A DNA stretch of 64,000 bases from Escherichia coli (GTDB lineage Bacteria > Pseudomonadota > Gammaproteobacteria > Enterobacterales > Enterobacteriaceae): NCBI RefSeq assembly GCF_017348835.2, contig NZ_CP071375.1; one strand, 5' to 3'. This document shows positions 45,726 through 46,140 of this stretch, in pieces. Both the position numbers and the translations under genes were made by a program. The notes beneath the pieces are model-generated. The model did not search any database. It saw nothing but the letters and a program-made list of their open reading frames with translations, and was not told the DNA's origin. How positions within the stretch are numbered: position 1 is the first letter of the stretch; each line of letters opens with the position of its first letter.

Positions 45726-46140
45726 GCATCCGGCAGTCGGCGCATAATGCCTGATGCGACGCTTGTCGCGTCTTATCATGCCTACAGGTTTGTGCCGAAC
45801 CGTAGGCCGGATAAGGCGTTCACGCCGCATCCGGCAGTTGGCGCACAATGCCTGATGCGACGCTTGTCGCGTCTTATCATGCCTACAAGTCTGTGCCGAA
45901 CCGTAGGCCGGATAAGGCGTTCACGCCGCATCCGGCAGTCGGCGCATAATGCCTGATGCGACGCTTAACGCGTCTTATCATGCCTACAGGTTTGTGCCGA
46001 ACCGTAGGCCGGATAAGGCGTTCACGCCGCATCCGGCAGTTGGCGCACAATGCCTGATGCGACGCTTGACGCGTCTTATCAGGCCTACAAGTCTGTGCCG
46101 AACCGTAGGCCGGACAAGGCGTTTACGCCGCATCCGGCAT
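45726..46140. repeat. tandem array of four 101-bp BIME/REP units between yjjV and yjjW
   Basis: The motif gcatccggcag recurs at 45726, 45827, 45928, 46029 and 46130; units alternate between two sequence variants. Confidence 0.85.

Follow-up and report, generated by a model that had tools for sequence, protein, structure and literature searches.

The spacer between yjjV and yjjW in the Escherichia coli DNA analysed here (a stretch of 64,000 nt from contig NZ_CP071375.1 of assembly GCF_017348835.2, referred to as the window) is a canonical BIME-2 array, composed of four Y-linker-Z2-linker units and a mini-Y remnant, and its locus has been published as the VNTR marker ms32. We consider the account as a whole very likely to be right: it joins this identity with the polymorphism and the mosaicism of the array, with a mechanism proposed for changes in copy number and with a function proposed from its family.

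Tandem Repeats Finder (TRF) placed the array at 45726-46139, with a period of 101 bp, 4.1 copies, 94% matches, 0% indels and a score of 730. The array takes up 414 bp (96%) of the 433-bp spacer, in line with the sequence-only reading, which had described the spacer as almost wholly four direct repeats of 101 bp, and the element reaches 7 nt further left than the TRF start by way of the mini-Y (Table 1). Each unit consists of a Y REP of 34 nt (GTAGGCCGGATAAGGCGTTCACGCCGCATCCGGC), a head-to-head linker of 14 nt, a Z2 REP of 37 nt in the opposite orientation (GCCTGATGCGACGC..GCGTCTTATCATGCCTAC) and a tail-to-tail linker of 16 nt. With h and t for the two kinds of linker, the left half of the spacer reads yjjV stop, tttgcccttc, mini-Y, h1-Z2-t1-Y and h2-Z2-t2-Y, and the right half reads h1-Z2-t1-Y, h2-Z2-t2-Y (variant y2), ATG and the yjjW stop.

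Table 1. Positions in the window of the array, its flanking genes, the ms32 primers and the matches to the Rfam model naRNA4
Feature	Position	Strand	Evidence
yjjV, TatD-family metal-dependent hydrolase, 260-aa allele	44926-45708	+	ORF list; PGAP of PE164
ms32 forward primer (TGAGATTGCCGAAGTGTTGC)	45651-45670	+	exact, single match in window
mini-Y, internally deleted 16-nt Y REP (GTAGGCAGCATCCGGC)	45719-45734	+	tokenisation into REP and linker variants
head-to-head linker h1 (AGTCGGCGCATAAT)	45735-45748, 45937-45950		unit comparison, tokenisation
Z2 REP no. 1, GTAG foot on minus strand	45749-45785	-	pattern search, hairpin folds
tail-to-tail linker t1 (AGGTTTGTGCCGAACC)	45786-45801, 45988-46003		unit comparison, tokenisation
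Y REP no. 1, GTAG foot on plus strand	45802-45835	+	pattern search, 0 mismatches
head-to-head linker h2 (AGTTGGCGCACAAT)	45836-45849, 46038-46051		unit comparison, tokenisation
other Z2 REPs	45850-45886, 45951-45987, 46052-46088		pattern search
tail-to-tail linker t2 (AAGTCTGTGCCGAACC)	45887-45902, 46089-46104		unit comparison, tokenisation
Y REPs identical to no. 1	45903-45936, 46004-46037	+	pattern search
terminal Y REP, variant y2 (GGACAAGGCGTTTACG)	46105-46138	+	pattern search, tokenisation
yjjW, glycyl-radical enzyme activase, 287-aa ORF	46142-47005	-	ORF list; PGAP of PE164
ms32 reverse primer (AACTGGCGGCGTTTATCAAG)	46307-46326	-	exact, single match in window
naRNA4 matches, each Y-linker-Z2	45805-45883 (76.7 bits), 45906-45984 (76.0 bits), 46007-46085 (83.1 bits)	+	cmscan
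naRNA4 match	46007-46085 (61.0 bits)	-	cmscan

In the array, the Y consensus was found four times with 0-2 mismatches and the Z2 consensus four times with 0-1 mismatches, and neither pattern had a match in 100 shuffles of the window. On the plus strand every unit runs from GTAG-Y to Z2-CTAC, so that the REPs alternate in inverted orientation. The Y REPs fold as imperfect hairpins: in no. 1, stems of 7 bp and 4 bp are separated by a 2x2 mismatch and closed by a 4-nt loop (-12.2 kcal/mol, z -4.4). Among the Z2 REPs, the fourth folds best and has an interrupted stem like that of Y, and the first has an extra C/A stem mismatch and a weaker fold; the GTAG foot stays unpaired in the REP folds. These folds and the pattern search support the earlier description of two REP-like palindromes per unit. 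The mini-Y has no fold of its own (-0.6 kcal/mol at 45719-45735, z +0.4). The whole spacer, taken as RNA, is far more structured than its shuffles on both strands (z -9.9 and -12.0).

Reading the spacer as an intrinsic terminator was rejected, as it contains no stem followed by a U-tract. The open reading frames inside the array (for example 45747-45956 and 45949-46311) were likewise rejected as coding, since they lie within the repeats and vary with copy number. PGAP annotates no gene or CDS in the spacer of the 12 genomes that lack an IS insertion, and the transposase of IS1397 in E. coli Z1323PEC0014 is the sole exception. Elsewhere in the window, three tandem tRNA genes (37524-37847, minus strand; 48.5 bits each in Rfam) form a repeat with a period of 120 bp, and a single Y-type REP is present just downstream of them (38061-38094). 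Another small BIME is probable at 16458-16572, where a REP-like tandem (period 52 bp, about 2 copies, 76-80% matches) includes a minus-strand Y REP (16514-16547).

REP and BIME-2 arrays have been described since the 1990s. In the BIME nomenclature of Gilson, Bachellier and Hofnung, summarised by Ton-Hoang et al. (PMC3333891), BIME-2 elements contain z2 and y REPs in inverse orientation, with short linkers and in multiple tandem copies, and the number of BIME copies at a given locus differs among strains. The spacer contains REPs of the Y and Z2 types in alternating inverted orientation, with GTAG and CTAC feet, the stem mismatch, short linkers and tandem copies, and its site is extragenic; we therefore assign it to BIME-2 (PMC3333891), and the BIME/REP identity proposed at first sight of the sequence stands.

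Comparison of the units showed that the first and second differ exactly at unit positions 13, 20, 62 and 65. Positions 13 and 20 fall in the head-to-head linker, 62 and 65 in the tail-to-tail linker, and none inside a REP. Two differences separate units 1 and 3, and four separate units 2 and 4. The linkers thus run h1/t1, h2/t2, h1/t1, h2/t2, which is the alternation of two variants (ABAB) that had been noticed before. The further claim of a higher-order periodicity of 202 bp calls for a caveat. The ABAB order is present, but it spans two periods only and TRF gives no 202-bp row for the window; units 2 and 4 are no closer to each other (4 differences) than units 1 and 2 are (4 differences). 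What was called a 202-bp higher-order repeat is an allele-specific arrangement that rests on two periods.

The marker ms32 is reportedly included in the MLVA panel for Shigella and E. coli of Gorge et al. 2008. Its two primers lie on either side of the array (Table 1), and the amplicon that they predict in the window is 676 bp long, scored as allele 4.2. The primer sequences are given in Table 1 of PMC8215070 and also in PMC4644529; the published unit is 101 bp and the published flank offset 254 bp. With this offset and unit, the spacers measured here translate into alleles 0.2, 1.0, 2.0, 2.2, 3.0, 4.0, 4.2 and 5.0, and the smallest published ms32 amplicon (355 bp) corresponds to our one-unit allele. 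The published alleles (1-5.5) agree with the range of 0-5 units found in our census. The passages on ms32 in PMC8215070 and PMC4644529 treat it as an anonymous length marker and do not touch on BIME-2 anatomy or linker mosaics. The identity could have failed at two points, the Y and Z2 consensus and the location of the ms32 primers, and it held when both were checked. As the array is ms32, the polymorphism that had been predicted for it is already known and has been in use for typing since the 2008 panel.

For the census of copy number, we used a BLAST query made of the flanks only and a sample spread evenly down the ranking of 5,423 genomes. This query replaced one that contained the array, for which five-unit alleles showed as partial matches from query position 424-427. 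Among 59 complete E. coli genomes, no unit was found in 3, one in 15, two in 11, three in 5, four in 11 and five in 14, which confirms, together with the published VNTR, the suggestion that copy number varies between strains. In one further genome of the 60-row sample, the flanks are split apart by an insertion of IS1397. Spacer sequences were also retrieved from twelve other E. coli genomes. The spacer segments measure 58 nt with no unit (a lone Y REP), 140 or 141 nt with one, 241 or 259 nt with two, 342 nt with three, 443, 444 or 461 nt with four and 543 nt with five. Copy number is uniform within the clones sampled: all sampled K-12 derivatives have four units, and O157:H7 and O55:H7 have two. 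By coordinate, the K-12 array (locus at 4614261-4614679 of K-12) sits between REP351 and REP354 in the EcoCyc numbering. The window does not represent K-12; it is 100% identical over 1301 bp, array included, to the complete genomes of PE164 and F2_81 (pig isolates).

In E. coli Z1323PEC0014, the loop of the first Y REP is interrupted by IS1397 (an IS3-family element that targets REPs), and two units are left to the right of the insertion (fetched segment 2349-4000). Beyond E. coli, we scanned species-representative genomes with the exact pattern of the tail-to-tail linker, which left the E. coli representative itself unmatched; only two stretches were found, both of them the yjjV-yjjW locus in cryptic Escherichia lineages, one with 2 units and the other with 11. 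The longer array, in Escherichia sp. MOD1-EC7003 (NZ_PTRE01000059.1, fetched segment 3258-4351), comprises 22 REPs and a mini-Y and is about twice as long as the largest E. coli allele sampled; its count of 11 comes from a draft short-read contig and could be off.

The two flanking genes converge on the array, which separates the 3' ends of the yjjUV and yjjIW transcription units. The stop codon of yjjV (TAG, 45706-45708) is 10 nt ahead of the first REP remnant. On the other side, the first paired base of the Y hairpin is 3 nt past the yjjW stop (TGA, 46144-46142) in the yjjW mRNA. This spacing of 3 nt between stop and REP is kept in all alleles examined but one, and in most strains the element beside the yjjW stop is a non-folding mini-Y. 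The mini-Y (GTAGGCCGCATCCGGC and point variants) equals a full Y minus 18 nt between two GCCG direct repeats. In the window it marks the left end of the array, in K-12 the right, and many alleles have a copy at each end. The terminal y2 of the window has exactly the sequence of the lone Y in the 0-unit allele. Sister clades have the array too, so the 0-unit allele may have arisen by secondary contraction instead of being an ancestral empty site.

We observed two alleles of the yjjV end. The first (window 45680-45735, ST131) encodes 260 aa and ends in FSVSG*, followed by tttgcccttc and a mini-Y; the second (K-12, UTI89 and the 0-unit allele; fetched segment L001 5240-5300) encodes 259 aa and ends in FNVP*. 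In K-12-type alleles, the TAG stop of yjjV is the TAG of the GTAG foot of the REP. The last 400 bp of yjjV (45280-45680) diverge to an unusual degree among E. coli strains: identity to the window is 91.8-98.3% there (K-12, 93.3%) and 95.3-98.8% over the 3' end of yjjW (46142-46542), and the flanks are at least 99% identical to the window in only 2 of the 5,423 genomes. The yjjV end of the window is nearer to that of a cryptic-clade Escherichia (96.8%) than to that of K-12, which suggests recombination beside the BIME.

By analogy with its family, the array may function as a hairpin barrier and attenuator at the 3' ends of both genes and as a preferred gyrase site. Transcription out of yjjV (plus strand) or yjjI-yjjW (minus strand) would yield stacked REP hairpins, and these could work in both directions, as a 3'-UTR element that stops 3'->5' exonucleases and dampens read-through, partly via Rho. 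REP325 has been described as a terminator and stabiliser of this kind, which stabilises the upstream mRNA and attenuates read-through, partly via Rho, and convergent gene pairs with a REP show higher expression (bioRxiv 10.64898/2026.03.23.713779). The Y REPs may likewise be preferred cleavage sites of DNA gyrase, with a possible role in buffering supercoiling where the two units converge. BIME-2 elements show an enrichment of gyrase cleavage sites, chiefly in their Y REPs and independently of transcription (PMC6379681), and they have been proposed as topological barriers (PMC10592627). Finally, the REP hairpin 3 nt past the yjjW stop may lower translation of YjjW by ribosome stalling; as cited in PMC12306157, a REP less than 15 nt from a stop codon stalls ribosomes and lowers translation. 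The distance between Y hairpin and yjjW stop in the window falls inside these 15 nt. The yjjV-yjjW array does not appear in the accessible supplementary tables and text of PMC6379681, PMC3333891 and bioRxiv 10.64898/2026.03.23.713779.

Natural strains tolerate anything from 0 to 5 units as well as the IS1397 insertion, so such a function would be dispensable or depend weakly on dose. The same observations are what would be expected if the array were a neutral passenger, a selfish or drifting repeat that has no selected role at this locus and whose copy number drifts. Alleles with 0, 1, 2, 3, 4 and 5 units all exist, all but the 0- and 3-unit alleles are common, and the annotation shows intact flanking genes for every allele examined. 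We regard this as possible but lean against it, because E. coli and two cryptic Escherichia lineages have all kept the array at this one site and with related linkers, because experiments on the family show effects on neighbouring transcripts and targeting by gyrase, and because all full REP copies examined in the window retain their hairpin potential.

The order of the linker variants differs between strains. The window has the order 1-2-1-2 for both h and t. In K-12 it is 2-2-1-2 for h and 1-2-1-2 for t, in 2024CK-00475 1-2-1 and 1-1-2, in BY63 1-2-2-2 and 1-2-3-2, and in ST131 1-2-2-2-1 and 1-1-2-2-2; the single-unit allele of F5656C1 is h1-Z2-t2. ABAB therefore characterises the window allele and not the locus, since the variants are arranged differently in K-12, ST131, BY63 and others; in other strains, a given h variant is not tied to a given t variant. 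An interior of t1-Y-h2-Z2-t2-Y-h1-Z2-t1-Y-h2-Z2(z3)-t2 is common to the window and K-12, whose differences are mainly at the two ends. In the type-II-left alleles (those with the left end of the window), the linkers always begin with h1, and t2 is always the last of the tail-to-tail linkers; the interior varies. The steps in length are exactly 101 bp, or 100 bp where the loop of a Z2 is one nucleotide shorter.

The shuffled linker variants suggest unequal recombination. Units would be gained and lost in exact steps of 101 bp by unequal homologous recombination or slipped replication, with the breakpoints of exchange or slippage inside the conserved REPs. Such events would shuffle the two linker haplotypes and keep the outermost linkers of the type-II-left alleles, and the ABAB order of the window would be one of their products. 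Alternatively, the changes in copy number and the ABAB order could be driven by TnpA-REP (RAYT), the REP-associated tyrosine transposase, which would cut and rejoin single-stranded BIME units in place of RecA-type exchange or slippage. In vitro, TnpA-REP cleaves and recombines BIMEs, with cleavage at CT sites in the iREP and the linker, and models in which whole BIME units are added have been published (PMC3333891). The GTAG foot and the stem mismatch, both required by the enzyme, are intact in all REPs of the array, and TRF scores the 11-unit array almost equally with a period of 201 bp (1885) and of 100 bp (1890). Homologous unequal exchange, however, predicts the exact 101-bp steps, the breakpoints in REPs and the conserved outer linkers equally well, the mini-Y remnants are explained by deletion between the 4-nt GCCG direct repeats, and sequencing of the K-12 mobilome detected no circular BIME intermediates (bioRxiv 10.1101/2024.07.17.603846). 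We hold the RAYT route to be unlikely and retain unequal exchange or slippage as the proposed mechanism. In K-12, rayT is located at about 0.25 Mb, far from the region of the array.

A more speculative extension, to which we give little credence, is that the number and order of units act as a heritable, lineage-specific 'dial'. The ms32 alleles (0-5 units, with a full Y or a mini-Y by each stop) would then set read-through, protection of mRNA 3' ends, ribosome stalling near the stop codon and gyrase loading for yjjUV and for yjjIW, a glycyl-radical enzyme pair. Amplification, in turn, might favour steps of two units (202 bp). The ABAB order in the window and the 201-bp TRF row of the 11-unit array hint at such two-unit amplification.

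We further compared the array with the Rfam family naRNA4 (RF02564, gathering score 59.5), whose model was built on the K-12 array REP325, using cmscan. Three plus-strand matches and one minus-strand match exceed the gathering score (Table 1), and the architecture is that of REP325, from which naRNA4 was defined (PMC4550694). The array might accordingly be seen as a cluster of naRNA4-like sRNA genes, whose transcripts would bind HU, bridge cruciform DNA and condense the nucleoid, but this appears very unlikely. The Rfam model is in effect a Y-linker-Z2 unit that any BIME-2 array should match, both strands of one unit match it, as fits a generic BIME-2 model, and promoter-like sites (2 against 0.9 expected) are not in excess of chance. 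In addition, the role proposed for the family is itself under dispute: deletion or overexpression of REP325 or naRNA4 reportedly caused no measurable change in nucleoid volume or long-range contacts (bioRxiv 10.64898/2026.03.23.713779, a preprint of 2026 with one of the authors of the original naRNA4 work). We thus discarded the Rfam matches as evidence for sRNA genes and take them to indicate family resemblance.

That the four copies result from a collapsed or expanded repeat in the assembly can practically be dismissed, because although short-read assemblers have difficulty with 101-bp units that are 94% identical, the same 1301-bp sequence is present in the separate complete records of PE164 and F2_81, four-unit alleles with a near-identical interior occur in K-12 and its derivatives, the units can be told apart by 2-8 differences, and the copy-number classes agree within clones.

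As a discovery the array carries little weight, given that BIME-2 arrays, their variable copy number and the marker at this locus are already published. Its practical value is that an anonymous MLVA marker, ms32, is now tied to its molecular anatomy. Alleles of ms32 of equal length can differ in end structure and linker order (homoplasy), and the natural alleles with 0-5 units (up to 11 in a sister clade) form a series in which the effect of REP dosage on convergent 3' UTRs could be studied.

Among the known systems, BIME-2 shows no structural difference from the array, and the position at gene 3' ends and the variable copy number are shared as well. BIME-1 (like the RIB/RIP elements) has its REP composition and its location at gene 3' ends in common with the array, but it is a single-copy element that combines z1 and y REPs with a long, IHF-binding L linker (PMC3333891), whereas the array is tandem, its four non-Y REPs all have a stem and loop of the Z2 type, and the IHF consensus (WATCAANNNNTTR) has no match in it; a BIME-1/IHF reading was rejected on these grounds. 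Each Y-Z2 pair resembles a REPIN of the REPIN/RAYT system, in which a domesticated Y1 transposase mobilises REP doublets, in being an inverted REP doublet of about 100 bp with a GTAG recognition foot, and differs in that REPIN doublets are dispersed singly, whereas the doublets here have been amplified in place as a tandem array. REP325 (naRNA1-6), in the yjdM-yjdN spacer of K-12, follows the same Y-linker-Z2-linker plan, with six repeats of Y-13nt-Z2-17nt and a period of 100 against 101 here. It lies between tandem genes inside an operon, whereas the array described here lies between convergent genes, and the linkers of the two are entirely different (AACGGTGCCGACT and AAATTCCCGCACCCTCC against AGTYGGCGCAYAAT and ARGTYTGTGCCGAACC). 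The same REP types with different linkers agree with the published observation that linkers differ from locus to locus but are conserved within each.
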